Below, one piece after another: positions 22,527-31,569 of a DNA stretch of 39,518 nt. The stretch comes from a virus, in UHGV virus genome UHGV-0040088. The stretch is one strand, 5' to 3'. The position numbers and the translations under genes are program-made. Under the pieces are notes generated by a model that was given only the letters and a program-made list of their open reading frames with translations, had not been told where the DNA came from and searched no databases. Numbering within the stretch: position 1 is the first letter of the stretch; each line of letters starts with the position of its first letter.

Positions 22527-25500
22527 ATGAGTAGCGGCGGCGGCAAAGCCAAAACACCAACACTATTGAACGATAACCTGTATCACAAACAGTTTTATCG
22601 TGTTTTAGATATTCTCAGCGAAGGGCCGATATACGGTCCGGTAAACCAGAAAGCGCCACTGAATGACGTGATGCTTAATGACACACCTGTTACTGACGCA
22701 AACGGGAATACATCAATCCCCGGGATTAGTGTAGCCTGGCGCAACGGCACGGCTGACCAGTCGCCGATTAATGGTTTTAATGCCATTGAGTCAACCGTTA
22801 TTGTCAACGCAAAGGTAACTCACGACACGCCAATAATCAGGACTGTTTCAGATCCAAACGTTACCCGCGTCAGGTTAAATCTTGGTGTTGACGCTCTCGT
22901 CCAGTCAGATGAAAAGGGCAATCAATACAATACATCCGTCATGTTGATGGTTGATGTTAAACCGTCATCTTCTTCTACGTGGTCGCTGATTAAAGATATA
23001 CACATTGGTCCCGGCAAACAAAGCGGTGAGTATCTGGAAGCCCACATCATTAAAGCACCGGATGAAAAACCGTTTGATATTCGCGTTCGTCGCGTGACAG
23101 CAGACAGCCACGGCGATCTATTGCGGAACGATACGCGGTGGAGCAGTTACAGCGAAATAATTGACGATAACCTGTCTTATCCCCATACCGCTGTAGCTGG
23201 CGCGGTAATTGACCACGATCAATATACTGATACGCCTACACGTACCTATCACCTTCGCGGCCTGATTGTTGATGTTCCTGATAACTACAACACAGAAACG
23301 CGCGCGTATTCTGGTTTATGGCTTGGCGGATTCAAAAAAGCGTACACCAATAACCCTGCGTGGATTTTCCGGTATCTGGTTAAAAACGAGCGCTTCGGGC
23401 TTGCTAAACATGCTGGTTACATTGATGTTGATGATGGCGCTTTGTACGTGCTCTCCCAATACTGCGATCAGTTGGTTGATGATGGCTATGGTGGCCTTGA
23501 ACCTCGCATGACGCTTAACGCTTACATTACGGAGCAAATGAGCGCCCGCGACCTACTGGATAACATTGCAGGTATGTTCCGTGGTATCGCGTTATGGGAC
23601 GGGCAACGCCTTACCGTGATGATTGATGCACCACAGGATCCAATTGCCACCATCACAAACGCAAACGTCGTTGATGGCGCGTTTACTCGCTCAAGTCTTC
23701 CGCTTGCAGAGTGTTACAACGCCGTGATCGTATCATGGACTGACCCGGAAAACGGCTGGGAGCAATCAAAAGAATACGTGGCAGATGATGAACTAATCGC
23801 CCGCGATGGTTATAACGAAACCACGTTGGAGGCGTTCGGGTGCACGTCACGCGGGCAAGCGTACCGCGCTGGTAAATGGCTGATAGAAACAGCAAAACGC
23901 GAGCCGTCTAAATTCACGTTTAAAATGGCCCGTGACGCAATTCACTTCACCCCTGGTGATATTATCGAGATACTCGACAATAACCGCGCTGGCGCTCGTT
24001 TAGGCGGTCGCATCGTGGCAAACAACGGCAGGGTTATCACTGTCGATAAGGTTGATTCTGAATATATCGCCCCCGGCGACACCATTAGCCTGCTTGATAG
24101 TGACGGCAAATTTAAAAAACACCAGATCACCGGAGTTAGCGGAAACAAAATTACCCTTGCATCTGCCCCGGCATGGATTCGTAACGGTACTGTGTTTGCC
24201 GTGTCAACTAACGCAGCAAAACCCGTATTGTGTCGAATCGTCAGCGTGGCGGAAACTGAAAATAACAGCGTGTACACCATAGAGGCTGCACAGCATGATC
24301 CGCACAAACAGGCTGTAGTAGATAATGGCGCAATCTTTGAGGTCAACAACGATACGCTTAATCACTTCCGCGTGCCAAACATTGAAAACCTGAAGGTGTT
24401 AAACATTGGATCTGAAACAGTTCAATGCCGCGCAACATGGGAAACACTGACGACAACTCATCGCCTGACCTTTGAAATCCGCGTATACAATTCAGCGGGG
24501 GCCGTAGTTAAAAGCTACGAAACTACTAATTACAGTTATGATTTTTATGGCATTGATGCGGGAACCTACTCATTAGGCATCCGTGGCAGAAATGACACGG
24601 GCATGAAGGGTGCTGAAAGCATTGTGGATCTGGTTATTGGTGCACCAGCGGCCCCGGTAGGAGTTAACTGGGTTCCCGGTGTATTTCAGGCTACAGTTTA
24701 CCCGATCAGCAGAACAACGCTTACCACTGACACCAGTTATGAGTTTTATTACTCAGGTGAAAAACAGATCACCGATCCGGCATCAGTAACCACTAAGGCA
24801 CAATATACCGGGCGTGGTCATCAGTGGACTTTTGGCGGCATGAACACGGGGCACACCTATTACGTTTATGTGCGCACACGCAATGCTTTTGGCGTGTCTG
24901 ACTTTGTGGAGGCATCAGGTAAGCCGACAGAGAATTTTGATGAAATCAGCGATTACGTCACCAAAGACGTGATGAACTCAGAACAGTTCAAGGAAATGAT
25001 TGGTGACATCAAAGATCTTGGTGATCGCACGGATGTTATTGAAAATGCCACAAATGAACTAAAAGCAGCTACCGACAACCTCAAAACTGCAACTGATAAT
25101 CTGACCAACATAACTGACGATTTAAGAACTGAAACCGACAACCTGACTAACATAACCGAAGATTTAAGAAATGATACTGACAACCTGATTACAGAAACAG
25201 GATCAATAAAAGCTGATACAGATACGCTAAAAAAAGAAACAGAAGATCTTTATAAAAAAGTTAAGGAAAACGCCGATGATATTGGTCAGCATGAGTCAAG
25301 AATTGATTCATTAGAAGTGTCCAGCGAAAAAGTTGGCAGCGAACTGGCGCAAGCAAAAGCAAGCCTGCAAAACGCGTCATTGGCGCTTATCAACAACTCG
25401 CTTGCACAGACAAACACGCGCGTTACCCTTACCGCCCAGTACAAAAAAGGCAGAACGGAAACGAAAGCGGAAATTGACCGTATTGACAACGTTATCGCTG

Positions 25501-28076
25501 AAGAGAAAAAAGCAACGGCTGAATCACTGAAAACCATCACGGCAGAAATGAACACGATGGATTCCAACCTTAAAGGTCAGATCTCCAGTGTGGAACGCGC
25601 AGTGGCTGACGAGGCTAGTGCCCGCGCTGAAGCTATTAACGGTGTGAACGCCTCAATAAGCAATCTCGACAAGAAAACGGATGCCAGCGTCAATAGGCTT
25701 GATCAGGCTATTGCAGATGAAACGAACGCCCGCACACAGGCGGTCAGTGACGTTAACGCAAGTATCTCGGTACTTGATAAGAAAACTGACGCCAGCGTTA
25801 AACGCCTGGATCAGGCAATCGCTGACGAAACCAGCGCAAGAACCGAAGCTATCAGTGGCGTGAACGCATCAATTTCAACGCTTGATAGCAAAGTGGAAAG
25901 CAATATAACGCGCATAGATAAAGCTATTGCAGATGAAACGCAGGCGCGTACAGACGCAATAAGCGGCGTCAAAGCGAGCATTAACACACTTGAAGGCAAC
26001 ACCAATTCAGAAGTTAAACGTCTGGATCAGGCAATCGCTGACGAGGCCAGTGCCCGCACACAGGCGGTAAGTGATGTAAAAGCATCAGTAAGCAACCTTG
26101 AAAGCAAAACTGACGCCAGCGTTAAACGCCTGGATAAAGCTATTGCAGACGAAACAAGCGCACGCAGCGAAGCTATTAGTGGGGTAAATGCCTCAGTATC
26201 AGCGCTCGACAAGAAAACCGATTCAAGCATAAGCCGCCTTGATAAAGCCATTGCGGATGAAACAAGCGCGAGAACCGAAGCCATCAACGGTGTGAATGCG
26301 TCAATTTCCACACTCGACGGCAAGGTTACAAGTAACGTTAGCCGCCTTGATAAAGCAATATCAGACGAAACGAAGGCAAGAAGCGACGCAATAACAGAGG
26401 TTAAAGCAGACTTAACAACGCTTGAGAACAGCACAAACGCCAGCGTTAAGCGTCTTGATCAGGCAATTGCCGATGAATCAAGCGCCCGCGCACAAGCAAT
26501 ATCAGGACTCAGCGCAAATCTTGGCACTGTTGAAAATAATGTTGGCAAAAACAGCGACGAAATAAATCAGGCAAAAGCAAGCCTGCAAAACGCATCTATT
26601 GCACTTATCAATAACTCAATCGCTCAAACCAACACGCGTGTTACTCTTTCAGCCCAATACAAGAAAGGAATCAGAGAAACCAACGCGAAAATTGACCGCA
26701 TTGACAATGTTGTAGCAGAAGAGAAAAAAGCAACGGCAGAAGCCATTAGCGGGGTAAGCGCATCGATCACCGATCTTGATAAGAAAACTGAAGCAAGCGT
26801 TAACCGCCTTGACAGGGCGATTGCAGACGAAACAAGCGCCCGCAGCGAGGCTATCAGCGGCGTGAATGCGTCAATTTCCACGCTTGATAGTAATGTGAAA
26901 AGCGACATTACCAGGATGGACAAAGCCATCGCCGATGAAACAAAAGCACGCGCAGACGCAATAAGCGGCCTTAGCGCATCGCTTACCAGTACGATCAACT
27001 CAAAAGTGTCTGAAGTGTCAACGGCACTTTCTACGCATGAGGAATCAAGTGCAGAAAAATTTAGCCAGATCTCGGCGTCTTTCGAATCAGTAAACTCAAG
27101 CATTACAGAATGGTCGCAGGCAATGGCTACAGCAGATAAGGCGTTGTCAACGAAAATTGATCAGCTAACAGTGACTGTTAACGGGAATAAGACGGCAATA
27201 GAGACGACATCTAAAGCGTTAACCGACTTTAAGGGTAATGTTGATGCGTCATATTCAATTAAGCTCGCCACCGACAACAACGGCATGAAATACGCAACAG
27301 GTATGTCACTTGGCCTTACTGGTGATGGGACCAACTTTCAGTCGCAGTGTATTTTCCTTGTTGACCGCTTCGTGTTAATGACTGACGCTAACGGTTCGTA
27401 TCAAACGCCTTTCTATGTAACTAATGGCGCAATGTATGTAAGAGAAGCGTTTATTAAAGACGGCACTATCAACTCCGCCAAAATAGCTGATCTAATACAG
27501 TCAGTTAATTATAGCTGGGAAGGCGCGACAGGATGGGCGATAAATAAAAACGGTAACGCAGTATTTAACCAAGTAACCGTAAGGGGGACGGTATACGCTA
27601 ATGCTGGTGTGTTTAACGGTACTGTTTACGCAACTGGCGGTAAATTTACTGGAGCAGTTGAAGCCACAAGTTTTGTTGGTGACGTAGCAAGTATGTCAGT
27701 GATAAACGAGAAAGTATTTCCGTCAATGAGGGGGAGCGGCAGCAGGGAAACTTCAAAAACTTATCTTGATTCAAGTTCATCAAGTTTATCAAAAACCGTT
27801 TACGTTATGATTCCGTATGATTTGTCATACTATACACATAGTGAATCTTCTCGTATCAGCGTAACTATAAACATAAACGGACACGCAAAAACAATTAATA
27901 TAGAAAGGCCAGCATCAGGTCCATCAATGTCATCTGTCGCGGTGCACTGTGTACATGACCTAACATACCCAACAATTACAGTCAAGGTTACGGAAAACTT
28001 TACCAATACATCCGCTGCATCAATAAGAAAACCAGGCTTGATACTTATAACAAGAAGTTCAGGAACATGGGTATAA
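22527..28076 (+). CDS. J: tail tip / host specificity protein J (lambda gpJ-like) with greatly expanded central coiled-coil repeat region
   Basis: N-terminal about 800 aa align block by block with lambda J as recalled (SEGPIYGP, YHLRG..YSG, YCDQ..GYGG..EPR, FGCTSRGQAYRAGKWL). 1849 aa versus about 1130 for lambda J. Confidence 0.9.
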   Translation: MSSGGGKAKTPTLLNDNLYHKQFYRVLDILSEGPIYGPVNQKAPLNDVMLNDTPVTDANGNTSIPGISVAWRNGTADQSPINGFNAIESTVIVNAKVTHDTPIIRTVSDPNVTRVRLNLGVDALVQSDEKGNQYNTSVMLMVDVKPSSSSTWSLIKDIHIGPGKQSGEYLEAHIIKAPDEKPFDIRVRRVTADSHGDLLRNDTRWSSYSEIIDDNLSYPHTAVAGAVIDHDQYTDTPTRTYHLRGLIVDVPDNYNTETRAYSGLWLGGFKKAYTNNPAWIFRYLVKNERFGLAKHAGYIDVDDGALYVLSQYCDQLVDDGYGGLEPRMTLNAYITEQMSARDLLDNIAGMFRGIALWDGQRLTVMIDAPQDPIATITNANVVDGAFTRSSLPLAECYNAVIVSWTDPENGWEQSKEYVADDELIARDGYNETTLEAFGCTSRGQAYRAGKWLIETAKREPSKFTFKMARDAIHFTPGDIIEILDNNRAGARLGGRIVANNGRVITVDKVDSEYIAPGDTISLLDSDGKFKKHQITGVSGNKITLASAPAWIRNGTVFAVSTNAAKPVLCRIVSVAETENNSVYTIEAAQHDPHKQAVVDNGAIFEVNNDTLNHFRVPNIENLKVLNIGSETVQCRATWETLTTTHRLTFEIRVYNSAGAVVKSYETTNYSYDFYGIDAGTYSLGIRGRNDTGMKGAESIVDLVIGAPAAPVGVNWVPGVFQATVYPISRTTLTTDTSYEFYYSGEKQITDPASVTTKAQYTGRGHQWTFGGMNTGHTYYVYVRTRNAFGVSDFVEASGKPTENFDEISDYVTKDVMNSEQFKEMIGDIKDLGDRTDVIENATNELKAATDNLKTATDNLTNITDDLRTETDNLTNITEDLRNDTDNLITETGSIKADTDTLKKETEDLYKKVKENADDIGQHESRIDSLEVSSEKVGSELAQAKASLQNASLALINNSLAQTNTRVTLTAQYKKGRTETKAEIDRIDNVIAEEKKATAESLKTITAEMNTMDSNLKGQISSVERAVADEASARAEAINGVNASISNLDKKTDASVNRLDQAIADETNARTQAVSDVNASISVLDKKTDASVKRLDQAIADETSARTEAISGVNASISTLDSKVESNITRIDKAIADETQARTDAISGVKASINTLEGNTNSEVKRLDQAIADEASARTQAVSDVKASVSNLESKTDASVKRLDKAIADETSARSEAISGVNASVSALDKKTDSSISRLDKAIADETSARTEAINGVNASISTLDGKVTSNVSRLDKAISDETKARSDAITEVKADLTTLENSTNASVKRLDQAIADESSARAQAISGLSANLGTVENNVGKNSDEINQAKASLQNASIALINNSIAQTNTRVTLSAQYKKGIRETNAKIDRIDNVVAEEKKATAEAISGVSASITDLDKKTEASVNRLDRAIADETSARSEAISGVNASISTLDSNVKSDITRMDKAIADETKARADAISGLSASLTSTINSKVSEVSTALSTHEESSAEKFSQISASFESVNSSITEWSQAMATADKALSTKIDQLTVTVNGNKTAIETTSKALTDFKGNVDASYSIKLATDNNGMKYATGMSLGLTGDGTNFQSQCIFLVDRFVLMTDANGSYQTPFYVTNGAMYVREAFIKDGTINSAKIADLIQSVNYSWEGATGWAINKNGNAVFNQVTVRGTVYANAGVFNGTVYATGGKFTGAVEATSFVGDVASMSVINEKVFPSMRGSGSRETSKTYLDSSSSSLSKTVYVMIPYDLSYYTHSESSRISVTININGHAKTINIERPASGPSMSSVAVHCVHDLTYPTITVKVTENFTNTSAASIRKPGLILITRSSGTWV
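25581..27010 (+). repeat. in-frame tandem repeats (36 aa / 108 bp, about 12 copies) inside J
   Basis: Repeated unit approximately V(K/N)RLDxAIADETxARxxAIsGVNASISxLDxKTDAS; the array is split by a second copy of a block (AKASLQNAS..IDRIDNV..EEKKATAE) at about 25358 and 26570. Confidence 0.85.
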
Positions 28077-28079
28077 AAA

Positions 28080-28108
28080 TAACCCCGCTTCGCGCGGGGT
28101 TTTCTTTT
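28080..28108. terminator. bidirectional terminator between J and minus-strand lipoprotein gene
   Basis: A-rich run, stem ccccgc/gcgggg, then TTTTCTTTT. Confidence 0.65.
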
Positions 28109-28346
28109 AGTAGTTAGCTACACAGTTAGAAGGGCTACCGATGCGGCGCATGTTGTGATCGAGTTCATGACACCATTGACCAGTATAAGGCAGTTTTTCA
28201 GTGTCATAGACAAGATGACCTTCACCATCATAGACAACATCTTGTGGAATTACTCCGCTATTCGGCAGGTTATGCAATGCGGCCTCTTTGTCAACAGCGC
28301 AACCAGTAAGAGCTACGGCCGCAGAGAATAAAACCACTTTGAACAT
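28107..28346 (-). CDS. small lipoprotein (79 aa), possible receptor-blocking superinfection exclusion factor
   Basis: Signal peptide with lipobox LTGC (MFKVVLFSAAVALTGC); function inferred from position between the J and fiber genes. Confidence 0.6.
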   Translation of the reverse strand: MFKVVLFSAAVALTGCAVDKEAALHNLPNSGVIPQDVVYDGEGHLVYDTEKLPYTGQWCHELDHNMRRIGSPSNCVANY

Positions 28347-28491
28347 GTTTTTTCATTTTTTAATCCTCGTTCTTGTTAGCTCGTCCGGTTCATCCGGTGT
28401 CTTGAATATCCGACAAAACAACATTTCGTATATTGATATAAATCAACAAATACATTTTGTGTAAGCAGAAAATGCAACACAGATCACAAAA

Positions 28492-28500
28492 TGGTAGAAT
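28492..28500 (+). promoter_or_regulatory. candidate extended -10 promoter (TGgTAGAAT) upstream of tail fiber gene
   Basis: TG-n-TAGAAT 34 nt upstream of the fiber start codon. Confidence 0.3.
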
Positions 28501-28533
28501 TATTCCGTTAATTAACAAAATGGAGTCATCGAG

Positions 28534-31500
28534 ATGATTTACACAACTGGAACAGTTGCCATTAACGGCAATACTGTTAAAGGCACGGGAACAAACTTTT
28601 CCGCGCCGCTTTCTCTTATTCGTGTAGGTTGCACGCTCATTGCTGTTGGCAATCCTGTGCAGATCTTTACCATCACGGAAATTAAAAGCGGCACTGAACT
28701 GTTAGTGACGCCAGCAGCTAACCCCGCAATCCCTGCCGGGACAAAATTTAGCATCCTGCTATCTGATTCGATCTCAGTTGATGGGCTTGCTCAGGACGTA
28801 GCTGAAACCCTGCGTTACTACCAGAGCAAAGAAACAGAAATCGCCTCCGCCGTAGAGTGGTGGAATGAGATCGGCGGCGAAGGTCAGTTGGATCAGCTTC
28901 TTACCAACATTCGCGCAGAAACAGCCAAATCAACCGCTAACGCTCAAAAAACAGAAACTGACAAAAACGCAGCAGAAGCGTCAAAAACAGCGGCTGCAAA
29001 ATCCGCCACGGCAGCGAAAACATCAGAAACCAACGCTAAGGCAAGCGAGACGGCAGCGAAAACAAGCGAAACCAAAGCCAAAACATCAGAGGACAGGGCG
29101 CAAGAATATCTGAATCAAATGGGAAGGCTTACCAGCCCAATGGTCCAATGTGCTTGGCCTGTTGAAACTAGCGGTAATGGCGCTTACGTTAAGATTGCTA
29201 AACTTAGCGATCCAAAGTCATCAGACTGCCACTTAACGCTAATGGTTACAAATGGCGGTGGCTACGGTTTAAGTTACGGGAATATTGACTTTATAGAGAT
29301 CTCCGCTCGAGGTCTTAACGACACAGGCGAAGTAACCAGTGAAAATATATCTAAATTTTTAAGTATTCGCCGACTCGGTTCACCAAACCTTCCCAATAAT
29401 AGTCAAATGTGTTACGGCCTGGTTAAAGGTGACGGCTATATCGAGGTCTGGTGCTACCAGCGATCTTATATTAAAAACACAAAAGTAGCGGTGCTGGCGC
29501 AGACTGGCAACACGGAATTATACATTCCTGAAGGATTTGTTAAGCAAGCCGACGCACCCGCTGGATATATTGAAAGCCCAGCAGCAAGGATTTACGACCA
29601 GGTAAACAAACCCAGCAAGGCAGATCTGGGCCTTTCTAATGCTATGCTTACAGGCGCTTTCGGTCTTGGCGGTAGCGGGATATCAACAACCGGCAAGATG
29701 AGCGATGTAGAGATCTTAAAAGCTCTGCGTGACAAAGGTGGTCATTTCTGGCGCAGTGATAGGCCGACCGGAAGTACGGCGACCATTTATAGCCGCGGTT
29801 CTGGTATATTCTCGCGGTGCGGCGATACGTGGTCGGCGATCAATATCGACTACGGAACAGGTAAAGTCAAGGTTTACGCTGGTAACGATGGTGGACTTAA
29901 TAGTGGTAATTTTTCCGTCAATGAGCTATACGGAACCAAAAATAAACCGTCGAAATCGGACGTTGGACTTGACAACGTAACCAACGATGCACAGGTTAAA
30001 AAATCCGGCGACACCATGACTGGCGACCTGTCGATCACTAAAGCAACACCTTCGATATACATTCGTTCAAAAAGTGGAACCGCCCATGTATGGTTCCAGA
30101 ATGAGGATCAATCGGAACGCGGTGTTATCTGGGCGCCTACCAATTCCGAAGGACTTGGCGAAGTTCACATCAGGGCCAAAAATACAAAAGGTGAATCAAC
30201 TGGTGAACTCATTGTTCGTCACGACGGGGAAATTAGGGTTCCCAGTCTCACAGCGAGTAAAAAAATAAAAGGCGCAACCGCAGATTTTACAAACACATCA
30301 GAAACCACGACGGAGAACACGTTAAAAATCAGCGGTAAGCAGCATACACCGTTAGTTTTAACGCGTACCGGGTATTCTGAAAACCTGTCCATTGGCTTCA
30401 AGGTTGATAACGTTGTTCAAAAATACCTCGGTATTAATAGCGGTGGGGATCTGTGTTTTGGTGATTATGCCGATCACAAAACAAACAGCAAAGTTATCAC
30501 GCAAGCAGTGCTTGATAGCGGTGTGACGGTAGGCGGTCAGACAACCTTTTCTAAACTTGCCACATTTAGCAAAGGCATGACCGGGCCTATCGTACCGGAA
30601 GGGCTTGACTCACGTACCATTGATCTTAATGACCTAATCATCAATGGTTCAGATATAGGATCGGTCAAATACTATCAATGTACATCTTCCAGTGGTGGAG
30701 CGAACATTACCAACAAGCCTGACGGCGTAGGCGGTAACTTCTTGCTGCGTGTAGAGTCAGTCCGTAAAGTTAGTGATACTGACTATATAAGTATGCAAAC
30801 ACTGACTAGTGGCGACAAAGAACGCGTATTTGTTCGTTTTAATACTAATAGTAAGTGGACAGCATGGTGTGAACCTGTTGTATCGGGATGGAAGCAGGAT
30901 GTGTCTGTTAAGACGCTAACAGCAGCCGAAGACGTCATCCTTAAAAACAGTGATACTGGTCCGCGCCTTATTTTAAGGAACTCTAACACATCGGCGCAGT
31001 CGTGGAGTGTAAGGGTGTGGGGTGAAAGCGGAAGGGAAAGCGTTTTTGAGGTTGGTAACAGCAATAGTTACATGTTCTATGCTCAGGAAGATGCAGCAGG
31101 AAACAAGAAATTTGACTTTAACGGTGATATTTCATGTAAGACGCTATATCAAACTTCTGACCAGAGCCTTAAAGACAACATTAAGGTTATAGGTGACGCC
31201 ACCGAATCCATCCGCAAAATGAATGGGTACACCTACACGTTTAAGGACGATGGCCTGCCTTACGCTGGCGTTATTGCACAGGAAGTAATGGACGCGCTGC
31301 CTGAAGCGATAGCGTTTACCACTCTTTGCGGCAAGGAGCTACAAGGACCAACAACTGACGGCAACATCTTACGCGAGGAAATGAAGTGCCTCAGCGTTGA
31401 CTATGCGGCGGTGACTGGTTTACTTGTCCAGGTGGCACGCGAAACGGATAACCGCGTCACCGAACTGGAAGAGGAGAACGCAAGCCTGAAAGCTAACATT

Positions 31501-31569
31501 GCCGCAATGGATGAGCGGATAGCAAAACTTGAAGCGCTTATCAGTCAGTTGACCGGAAGCGAAGAATAA
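28534..31569 (+). CDS. side tail fiber protein (Stf-like N-terminus) with C-terminal intramolecular chaperone (peptidase S74-like) domain
   Basis: N-terminal KTSETNAK-type Ala/Lys/Thr/Ser repeats as in lambdoid Stf fibers; C-terminus SDQSLKDNIKVIG...NGYTYTF... then a coiled coil, as in self-cleaving chaperone domains. Confidence 0.85.
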   Translation: MIYTTGTVAINGNTVKGTGTNFSAPLSLIRVGCTLIAVGNPVQIFTITEIKSGTELLVTPAANPAIPAGTKFSILLSDSISVDGLAQDVAETLRYYQSKETEIASAVEWWNEIGGEGQLDQLLTNIRAETAKSTANAQKTETDKNAAEASKTAAAKSATAAKTSETNAKASETAAKTSETKAKTSEDRAQEYLNQMGRLTSPMVQCAWPVETSGNGAYVKIAKLSDPKSSDCHLTLMVTNGGGYGLSYGNIDFIEISARGLNDTGEVTSENISKFLSIRRLGSPNLPNNSQMCYGLVKGDGYIEVWCYQRSYIKNTKVAVLAQTGNTELYIPEGFVKQADAPAGYIESPAARIYDQVNKPSKADLGLSNAMLTGAFGLGGSGISTTGKMSDVEILKALRDKGGHFWRSDRPTGSTATIYSRGSGIFSRCGDTWSAINIDYGTGKVKVYAGNDGGLNSGNFSVNELYGTKNKPSKSDVGLDNVTNDAQVKKSGDTMTGDLSITKATPSIYIRSKSGTAHVWFQNEDQSERGVIWAPTNSEGLGEVHIRAKNTKGESTGELIVRHDGEIRVPSLTASKKIKGATADFTNTSETTTENTLKISGKQHTPLVLTRTGYSENLSIGFKVDNVVQKYLGINSGGDLCFGDYADHKTNSKVITQAVLDSGVTVGGQTTFSKLATFSKGMTGPIVPEGLDSRTIDLNDLIINGSDIGSVKYYQCTSSSGGANITNKPDGVGGNFLLRVESVRKVSDTDYISMQTLTSGDKERVFVRFNTNSKWTAWCEPVVSGWKQDVSVKTLTAAEDVILKNSDTGPRLILRNSNTSAQSWSVRVWGESGRESVFEVGNSNSYMFYAQEDAAGNKKFDFNGDISCKTLYQTSDQSLKDNIKVIGDATESIRKMNGYTYTFKDDGLPYAGVIAQEVMDALPEAIAFTTLCGKELQGPTTDGNILREEMKCLSVDYAAVTGLLVQVARETDNRVTELEEENASLKANIAAMDERIAKLEALISQLTGSEE

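Follow-up and report, generated by a model that had tools for sequence, protein, structure and literature searches.

The window analyzed in this study is the whole 39,518-nt stretch of the UHGV virus genome UHGV-0040088. When the initial 25 kb of the window was compared with phage genomes, 87% of this segment matched mEp010 with approximately 90% identity, and 74–87% of it matched mEp044, mEp554, mEp021, mEp515, mEp013, and MagusPhagus with 88–89% identity. Based on this match to mEp010 and its relatives, we regard the window as a temperate siphophage of Escherichia coli belonging to the mEpimmI group (mEp021-like). Related prophages were detected in 20 of the 5426 complete E. coli genomes, and the one in strain 2-331 was found to be the closest (96.8% over positions 27400–28700).

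The locus of interest comprises three genes (Table 1). The product of the first gene bears the FNIII-A_GpJ, Phage-tail_3, Ig_J, Ig_J_second, and Phage_Tail_Tip domains and is a bona fide gpJ, while the third gene encodes a lateral tail fibre. Between the two, the sequence-only reading had placed a lipoprotein gene of 79 codons on the opposite strand, and its coordinates turned out to be exact. The J gene and the lipoprotein gene are convergent with 30 nt between their stop codons, and the lipoprotein gene and the tail fibre gene are divergent with 187 nt in between. The bidirectional terminator, which had also been proposed in that reading, was located in the gap between J and the lipoprotein gene, where a stem of 8 bp (6 of them GC pairs) is accompanied by T-runs on both strands. 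A terminator at the corresponding place is annotated in the records of mEp010 and mEp013 as well. The lipoprotein gene, running in the opposite direction, forms a transcription unit by itself and ends at this bidirectional terminator.

Table 1. Features at the J–lipoprotein–tail fibre locus, with positions numbered along the window.
Feature	Coordinates	Strand	Basis
gpJ-like central tail fibre/host-specificity protein, 1849 aa	22527..28076	+	Domain matches
C-terminal receptor-binding end of J (last 135 aa), CAjan/Bas21 type	27669..28073	+	Sequence comparison
Bidirectional intrinsic terminator common to J (+) and the lipoprotein gene (-)	28081..28101	both	Terminator scan
Lipoprotein ORF, 79 aa + stop (mEpimmI "type-C Lpp", homologue of mEp010 Lpp010/gp116, PHROG 12984)	28107..28346	-	Sequence, profile match, selection
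Mature lipoprotein, 64 aa	28110..28301	-	Conserved motifs across homologues
Variable patch of the lipoprotein, aa 36–44 (QDVVYDGEG)	28215..28241	-	Alignment with close relatives
Signal peptide (aa 1–15) and lipobox L-T-G-C	28299..28346	-	Read from the sequence; codon of Cys16 at 28301..28299
Out-of-frame ORF of 21 codons, MKKHVQSGFILCGRSSYWLRC and stop, overlapping the lipoprotein start	28291..28356	-	Opened by the canonical ATG
Canonical start of the family (SD GAGGA at 28368..28364, ATG at 28356..28354), out of frame here	28347..28368	-	Alignment of relatives
Weak, overlapping divergent promoter candidates	28472..28518	both	Relaxed scan, 8/12 matches each; not significant against shuffles
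Lateral tail fibre gene, 1011 aa, with C-terminal Peptidase_S74 intramolecular chaperone	28534..31569	+	Domain match

The minus-strand ORF is a real gene under purifying selection. The ratio dN/dS ranged from 0.07 to 0.16 in the comparisons with five relatives, and the lipoprotein of the sixth relative, the prophage of E. coli 2-331, was identical with a single synonymous difference in the gene. Furthermore, the HMM of PHROG 12984, annotated as "lipoprotein," matched residues 5–79 of the window protein with an E-value of 1.3e-26.

The translation begins with MFKVVLFSAAVALTGC and contains the lipobox L13-T14-G15-C16, in agreement with the pattern [LVI][ASTVI][GAS]C, of which the Cys residue was invariant in 25 out of the 25 family members examined. 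The residue at position +2 is Ala in the window lipoprotein, and no family member was found to possess Asp at this position. Under the +2 rule of the Lol pathway, lipoproteins without Asp at +2 are sorted to the outer membrane, and the residue found here predicts the same destination for the window lipoprotein. Three motifs in the mature domain (PNSGVxP, DTEKLPxTGQWC, and RRIGSPSNC..Y) are invariant or nearly so among the 25 homologues, and the conserved pair of Cys59 (28172..28170) and Cys75 (28124..28122) probably forms a disulfide in the periplasm. The amino acid differences among the close relatives fall mostly in the patch of residues 36–44. Searches of Pfam, NCBIfam, and PADLOC with the window protein gave no match, a profile search of PDB returned noise only (E > 0.4) and no sequence relative, and RefSeq labels this lipoprotein as "hypothetical protein." When 1.84 billion representative proteins were searched exhaustively with HMMER, the family was represented by only 3 clusters at the 50% identity level, and remote relatives were lacking. 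Altogether, the lipoprotein family is narrow and confined to the phages of enterobacteria. AlphaFold2 yielded models of low confidence for both the full protein and the mature part (pLDDT of 61 and 53, and pTM of 0.30 and 0.27, respectively, from 25-sequence alignments each), values too low for a comparison with the fold of Llp (PDB 7QJF and 8A60).

The lipoprotein had been read from the sequence as a possible exclusion factor that masks a receptor, and this reading gains support from the literature. The window protein shares 96% identity with mEp010_116 (gp116, termed Lpp010), and 63 of the 64 mature residues are the same, the exception being E44 in place of Ser. The identities to mEp013_104 and to the "lipoprotein" of MagusPhagus were 96 and 92%, respectively. 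Lpp010 belongs to the "type-C" lipoproteins of the mEpimmI phages named by Negrete-Mendez et al. (2025), who cloned it under Ptac (PMC11893012). In their spot assays with plasmid over-expression, Lpp010 excluded the LamB-dependent phages mEp010, mEp044, and mEp554 and, unexpectedly, lambda, while OmpA-dependent phages were not excluded (PMC11893012). LamB was needed by mEp010, mEp013, mEp044, and mEp554, as infection was abolished by the Keio lamB knockout, and mEp013 escaped both Lpp010 and the type-A lipoprotein Lpp021 (PMC11893012). The exclusion function proposed for the window lipoprotein has thus already been published, in 2025, for an almost identical protein. We searched the literature for other LamB-directed exclusion lipoproteins and found none beyond the above-mentioned study. 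Lpp010 and the window lipoprotein belong to the same family, to the same phage group, and to loci of the same order, in which J is followed by the terminator, the oppositely oriented lipoprotein gene, and the tail fibre gene. The two differ at the N-terminus, as the window gene lacks an in-frame canonical start and begins at residue 4 of the family, and in the signal peptide, in which S8 replaces Ala.

The difference at the N-terminus stems from a single nucleotide. In all of the six close relatives, the lipoprotein is 82 aa long (MKN/MGN...) and starts from an ATG located 9 nt further upstream, 7 nt from the SD sequence GAGGA. The A-run at positions 28348–28353 is A6 in the window and A5 in the six relatives, and this state is unique among the seven sequences compared (ATGAAAAAAC in the window versus ATGAAAAAC in the relatives, with ATGGGAAAC in mEp013). 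Because of the extra A, the canonical ATG no longer shares the frame of the lipoprotein, for which the ATG at codon 4 of the family is left as the only possible start. This second ATG (28346) is 17 nt away from the SD sequence and lies inside the competing ORF opened by the canonical ATG. As initiation would have to occur without a nearby SD sequence and in competition with the upstream ORF, the A6 allele probably lowers the yield of the lipoprotein.

An error in sequencing or assembly was considered as the source of the extra A and rejected, since the identical allele is shared by three assemblies that stem from different studies and include a mosaic genome. The exact 79-aa product was called on five metagenome contigs. 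Two of the three metagenome loci bearing A6, from different studies, showed 100% identity with the window along 3.2 kb. In the third one, a base-by-base comparison found no difference from the window across a stretch of at least 500 bases with the gene at its centre (approximately 1.8 kb by a coarser binned comparison, which was partly inconsistent), while its flanks are only ~70–83% identical. The A6 allele therefore circulates in gut metagenomes.

Would the A6 allele then represent a decaying or silenced copy in this lineage, in which the frameshift at the start abolishes useful expression and no exclusion takes place? Such a possibility agrees with the displacement of the canonical ATG and its SD sequence from the reading frame, found in the window alone among the seven sequences compared, with the lack of an SD sequence at a functional distance from the remaining ATG, and with the fact that ribosomes translating the 21-codon ORF cross that ATG. 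Nevertheless, the ORF is otherwise intact, and its product equals the protein encoded by the prophage of E. coli 2-331 without the three N-terminal residues. The shortened signal peptide (MFKVVLF...LTGC) is still complete, and the recovery of the allele from three or more independent metagenome assemblies, a mosaic genome among them, does not fit well with a decaying copy. Moreover, initiation can occur on an A-rich leader independently of an SD sequence, and one may speculate that slippage by +1 along the A-run would bring back the canonical N-terminus MKNMFK. For these reasons, we regard the loss of function in this lineage as unlikely.

We surveyed 50,697 phage records by tblastn to examine the distribution of the family, and detected it in 44 records, all of which were of enterobacterial siphophages. 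The 44 records comprise the mEp group, Seuratvirus (CAjan, Seurat, Skure, the SLUR phages, and Bas21–24 of the BASEL collection), Nonagvirus 9g, Dhillonvirus (EP23, PNS1, HH3, Maverick, and CS16), Salmonella phage STP-SP5, Cronobacter phage CSP1, and Enterobacter phage AS5. Wherever the coordinates of both genes were compared, the lipoprotein gene was found ~40–45 nt past the stop codon of J on the opposite strand, and the layout was the same as that of the window in mEp010, mEp013, MagusPhagus, CAjan, Bas21, Bas22, and AS5. The lipoproteins of CAjan (gp19), Seurat, Bas21–24, 9g, EP23, PNS1, and HH3 are homologous to the window protein with 50–58% identity and share the motifs, the Cys pair, the position, and the orientation of the gene. 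On the other hand, these homologues bear a shorter linker after the lipidated Cys (GNGxNTG in place of AVDKEAALHN in the window) and are carried by obligately lytic phages. In the BASEL papers, the locus beside J is described generically as encoding "superinfection exclusion proteins."

According to the BASEL table, the terminal receptor is LamB for Bas21 (GottfriedDienst), Bas22 (KurtStettler), Bas23 (WildeMaa), and Bas24 (SeppeHuegi), all of which possess the lipoprotein. The table lists LptD for Bas20, a Nonagvirus, and for Bas25, a Seuratvirus. No lipoprotein match was found by tblastn for these two LptD-dependent phages, whose genera are also those of phages with a match.

We then compared the receptor-binding ends of J. 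The J protein of the window was 82% identical to that of mEp010 over the first ~1370 residues, but only ~25% identical over the last ~130. The last 135 residues of J fell into two distantly related subtypes, which were 25–30% identical to each other. The HK97-like subtype comprises mEp010, mEp013, Bas22, and HK97 (62–68% identity among themselves), and the window J end is 25–26% identical to those of mEp010 and mEp013 and 25–30% identical to those of mEp010, Bas22, and HK97, all of which are LamB-dependent. The window itself belongs to the CAjan-like subtype, together with the prophages of E. coli 2-331 (96% identity to the window), MIN12 (86%), and N1286 (66%), and with MagusPhagus (55%), and CAjan and Bas21 (43%). 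Neither lambda J nor the OmpA-type J of mEp021 showed similarity to either subtype in this comparison. LamB serves HK97 as well as lambda for adsorption (PMC6832061), and every member of the two J subtypes with a known receptor uses LamB. Thus, we infer from the J end that the window phage uses LamB as well.

The two J subtypes are not mirrored by the lipoproteins. The mEp-type lipoprotein is present with both J subtypes, and the mature lipoproteins of Bas21 and Bas22 are nearly identical, while their J ends are of the CAjan type and the HK97 type, respectively. Judged from these comparisons, the lipoprotein is not matched to the receptor-binding subtype of J, and the common denominator is the receptor LamB. 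As the lipoprotein is uncoupled from the J subtype and lambda, with its unrelated J end, is nevertheless excluded, its action is argued to be on the host side, that is, on LamB, rather than on a particular phage protein. The sequence-only reading had left the target receptor open; this statement is outdated, as both the published work on Lpp010 and the co-occurrence with LamB-type J termini point to LamB. Altogether, the original interpretation is supported and sharpened, with LamB as the most likely target, albeit the kind of element has already been published.

Thus, we propose that the lipoprotein closes the entry route of the phage itself by inactivating LamB as a phage receptor and thereby excludes LamB-dependent siphophages, which we regard as the likely function. 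A prophage or an infecting phage would produce the lipoprotein, which would be processed by Lsp and lipidated at Cys16. The mature protein of 64 residues would then be delivered by the Lol system to the periplasmic face (inner leaflet) of the outer membrane, where it would inactivate the maltoporin LamB as a receptor. Consequently, superinfection by phages of its own kind, by those with J ends of the HK97 and CAjan types, and by lambda would be prevented, and the progeny would not be wasted on cell debris. The allele in the window would act in the same manner as Lpp010, with the block set at LamB itself and not further along the infection. By analogy with Llp, direct binding to LamB, which would make its surface unrecognisable, would be the most likely mode of action, albeit with details that must differ. 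The escape of mEp013, which depends on LamB, implies that LamB is neither simply removed nor fully occluded and stays partly usable. As the phages tested against Lpp010 bore no CAjan/Bas21-like J end, self-exclusion in the case of the window phage can only be inferred.

It is also conceivable that the exclusion takes place after adsorption, by a block of tail-tip opening, of periplasmic transit, or of DNA entry at the inner membrane, instead of the masking of LamB. The authors who characterized Lpp010 by spot assays allow for either interference with DNA ejection or a receptor block (PMC11893012). The escape of mEp013 in spite of its requirement for LamB can also be accommodated by a block after adsorption. 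Nevertheless, we consider this explanation improbable, even more so than the decay of the gene discussed above. The residue at +2 predicts anchoring in the outer membrane but not in the inner membrane, and the gene is genetically coupled to the receptor-binding end of J rather than to the tape-measure gene. Furthermore, the excluded phages have LamB in common but differ in their requirements at the inner membrane, which are ManYZ for lambda and PtsG for HK97-type phages. In line with this difference, DicB affects lambda but not HK97 (PMC6832061).

The lipoprotein was compared with Cor and Llp, the receptor-inactivating lipoproteins to which its position had been likened. The position is indeed equivalent, as cor of T1 has the same layout, on the opposite strand, beside the receptor-binding gene, and with a bidirectional terminator. 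The protein had been described as not recognisably Cor or Llp, and our profile comparisons agree with this description. T1 Cor (taken from the T1 record) and T5 Llp (checked against chain B of PDB 8A60) matched PHROG 1119 with E-values of 3.3e-30 and 1.1e-19, respectively, whereas the window protein gave no match to PHROG 1119 even at E<=10. When the family alignment was compared with Llp and with Cor by hhalign, only columns 1–24, corresponding to the signal peptide, were aligned.

The likeness is thus one of function, drawn by analogy. Cor (T1, phi80, N15, HK022, and mEp167) and Llp (T5) are lipobox lipoproteins of 75–77 aa that inactivate the outer-membrane receptor of their own phage, and the window gene may do the same. 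Cor and Llp possess one Cys near the N-terminus and another at the C-terminus, whereas the paired Cys residues of the window protein both fall within its C-terminal third. Cor and Llp act on FhuA, a TonB-dependent transporter, while indirect evidence on the window protein points to LamB. LamB is a plug-less porin, and the jamming of the plug as seen for Llp and FhuA cannot apply literally to a protein without a plug domain. Llp, which binds the plug of FhuA from the periplasm and refolds the surface loops, is the only structurally understood precedent (PMC9586334).

Lpp021 (gp81 of mEp021) is closer to the window lipoprotein in its setting. This type-A lipoprotein (PF24052, PHROG 4281) shares the phage group, a gene position between J and the tail fibre genes, a similar size, and the role in exclusion. 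In contrast to Lpp010, however, it excludes phages dependent on OmpA, namely mEp021 and mEp515, but not those dependent on LamB (PMC11893012). The window protein aligned with Lpp021 at 26% identity, and hhalign of the window family against Lpp021 gave a probability of 19% with the signal peptide only. The relatives of Lpp021 carry PF24052, while the window protein has no Pfam match. A C-terminal pattern in an alignment of 5 sequences (K-x-P..G..C...D...G....C...Y) raised the idea of a common origin with the type-A lipoprotein, which was rejected as hhalign gave no support.

A lysis or envelope lipoprotein (e.g., an o-spanin-like one) or a virion-associated lipoprotein, unrelated to exclusion, is effectively refuted: small phage lipoproteins with conserved cysteines do include Rz1-type o-spanins, but the search of the window protein against the spanin PHROGs yielded nothing even at E<=10, the gene lies outside the lysis cassette, has no overlapping i-spanin and always adjoins J, and the near-identical Lpp010 alone confers exclusion.

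Returning to the inactivation of LamB as the preferred reading, we tentatively extend it as follows. The family may silence the trimeric LamB, which lacks a plug, from the periplasmic face and thus in a manner different from that of Llp on FhuA, for instance by the insertion of the disulfide-bonded C-terminal loop into the LamB channel or by an allosteric repositioning of the surface loops. The variable patch at residues 36–44 and the escape of mEp013 may then reflect an arms race at the contact with LamB, and the A6 allele may be a deliberately attenuated or slippage-dependent variant rather than a defect. Such an extension appears possible, albeit it is far less secure than the inactivation of LamB itself.

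If the proposal is correct, neither lambda nor many other LamB-dependent coliphages, some of them in the BASEL collection, would be able to infect the lysogens, which bears on the prediction of host ranges and on the design of phage cocktails. For annotation, the gene is of value as a determinant of phage resistance for which Pfam, NCBIfam, and PADLOC hold no model. How a lipoprotein of 64 residues disables a porin without a plug, and how mEp013 escapes, make up a mechanistic puzzle. The window contributes little to this puzzle, but it shows one and the same lipoprotein in company with two LamB-type J ends of distant relationship, as well as a start-frameshift allele that circulates in gut metagenomes.

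As for the transcription of the gene, the sequence-only reading had assumed a divergent promoter region between the lipoprotein gene and the tail fibre gene, which found no support in our scans: the standard consensus scan of the spacer (28347–28533) detected no site, and the promoter-like sites were not more numerous than expected from shuffles. The minus-strand candidate from the relaxed scan is TTGTTA-16-TACCAT (28518..28491), and the plus-strand candidate is ATGCAA-17-TAGAAT (28472..28500), of which the extended -10 element TGgTAGAAT ends at 28500. Apart from the scans, the region in which the two candidates overlap was observed to be conserved in the relatives.

Compared with the mEp phages that have been studied in experiments, the window carries an exchanged receptor-binding end in J, the gene for the gpJ-like host-specificity protein. 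Nucleotide similarity between the window and mEp010, mEp013, mEp044, and mEp554 begins only at the stop codon of J, and the last 135 amino acids of the window's J are of the CAjan/Bas21-like subtype (43%), not the HK97-like subtype. The lipoprotein encoded next to the exchanged end remains about 96% identical. These sequence comparisons suggest a recombination boundary exactly at the end of J.

A mosaic relative found in a metagenome (L017; ERZ28614608 scaffold_15933) was set against positions 26607-29846 of the window. In a base-by-base comparison, this locus was identical to a second metagenome locus (L015), itself identical to the window, across 500 bases centered on the lipoprotein gene. 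A coarser, binned comparison, in which one bin was inconsistent, suggested an identical stretch of roughly 1.8 kb that takes in the C-terminus of J and the N-terminus of the tail fiber, while the flanking J and tail fiber sequences were only about 70-83% identical. As judged from these alignments, the host-recognition module seems to travel as a cassette. The distal parts of the tail fiber differ considerably among relatives; mEp010 has 655 amino acids and mEp013 has 849, and the prophage versions carry the annotation 'pyocin knob domain-containing S74 family peptidase.'

Features noted in the window
Feature	Position	Strand	Remarks
Putative homing endonuclease ORF, 174 aa	17937-18461	-	Opposite strand within the tail-gene block; HNH_3 endonuclease domain (6e-14)
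Imperfect coiled-coil repeats of J	about 25000-27100	+	Long block; J aa about 840-1500
J receptor-binding end	27669-28076	+	Compared with the experimentally studied mEp phages
Variable patch of the lipoprotein	28215-28241	-	QDVVYDGEG, aa 36-44; close relatives compared
Lipoprotein start region with the A6 allele	28347-28368	-	A-run compared with six relatives
Spacer ORF, 42 aa	28390-28518	-	TTG-initiated; between the lipoprotein and tail fiber genes
Tail fiber gene	28534-31569	+	N-terminus conserved; Peptidase_S74 intramolecular chaperone at the C-terminus (aa 875-925)

Most of the amino acid differences between the lipoproteins of close relatives fell in a single short patch, with the variants QEIVYDADG, DVNG, DANG, and DGSG, and the rest of the mature protein was invariant among them. 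Possibly the patch forms an interface on which diversifying pressure acts. In the A-run downstream of the canonical ATG of the family, the window bears one additional A (A6, versus A5 in the six relatives). This base shifts the ATG out of the lipoprotein frame, and the upstream ORF of 21 codons that arises overlaps the start of the lipoprotein. The A6 allele is also carried by three metagenome assemblies (L015, L016, and L017, at about 1485-1503), which are independent and come from the gut or other sources; this makes it a genuine circulating variant. Codon 4 of the family is ATG in only a part of its members, being GTG or GTA in mEp013, the N1286 prophage, and mEp010.

The spacer ORF corresponds to the 'hypothetical proteins' in the PHANOTATE-based records of the mEp phages and MagusPhagus, was not called by PGAP in prophages, and overlaps candidate promoters; it is probably not a gene.

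The repeats of J follow the pattern ...RLDQAIADETSAR..AISGVNASIS.LD.... Since J of the window, with 1849 amino acids, is 142 longer than that of mEp010 (1707), the repeat number differs between relatives. The HNH_3 ORF, which also gave a weak AP2 DNA-binding match, probably encodes a homing endonuclease. In contrast to the window, mEp021 carries an HNH gene elsewhere, directly before J.
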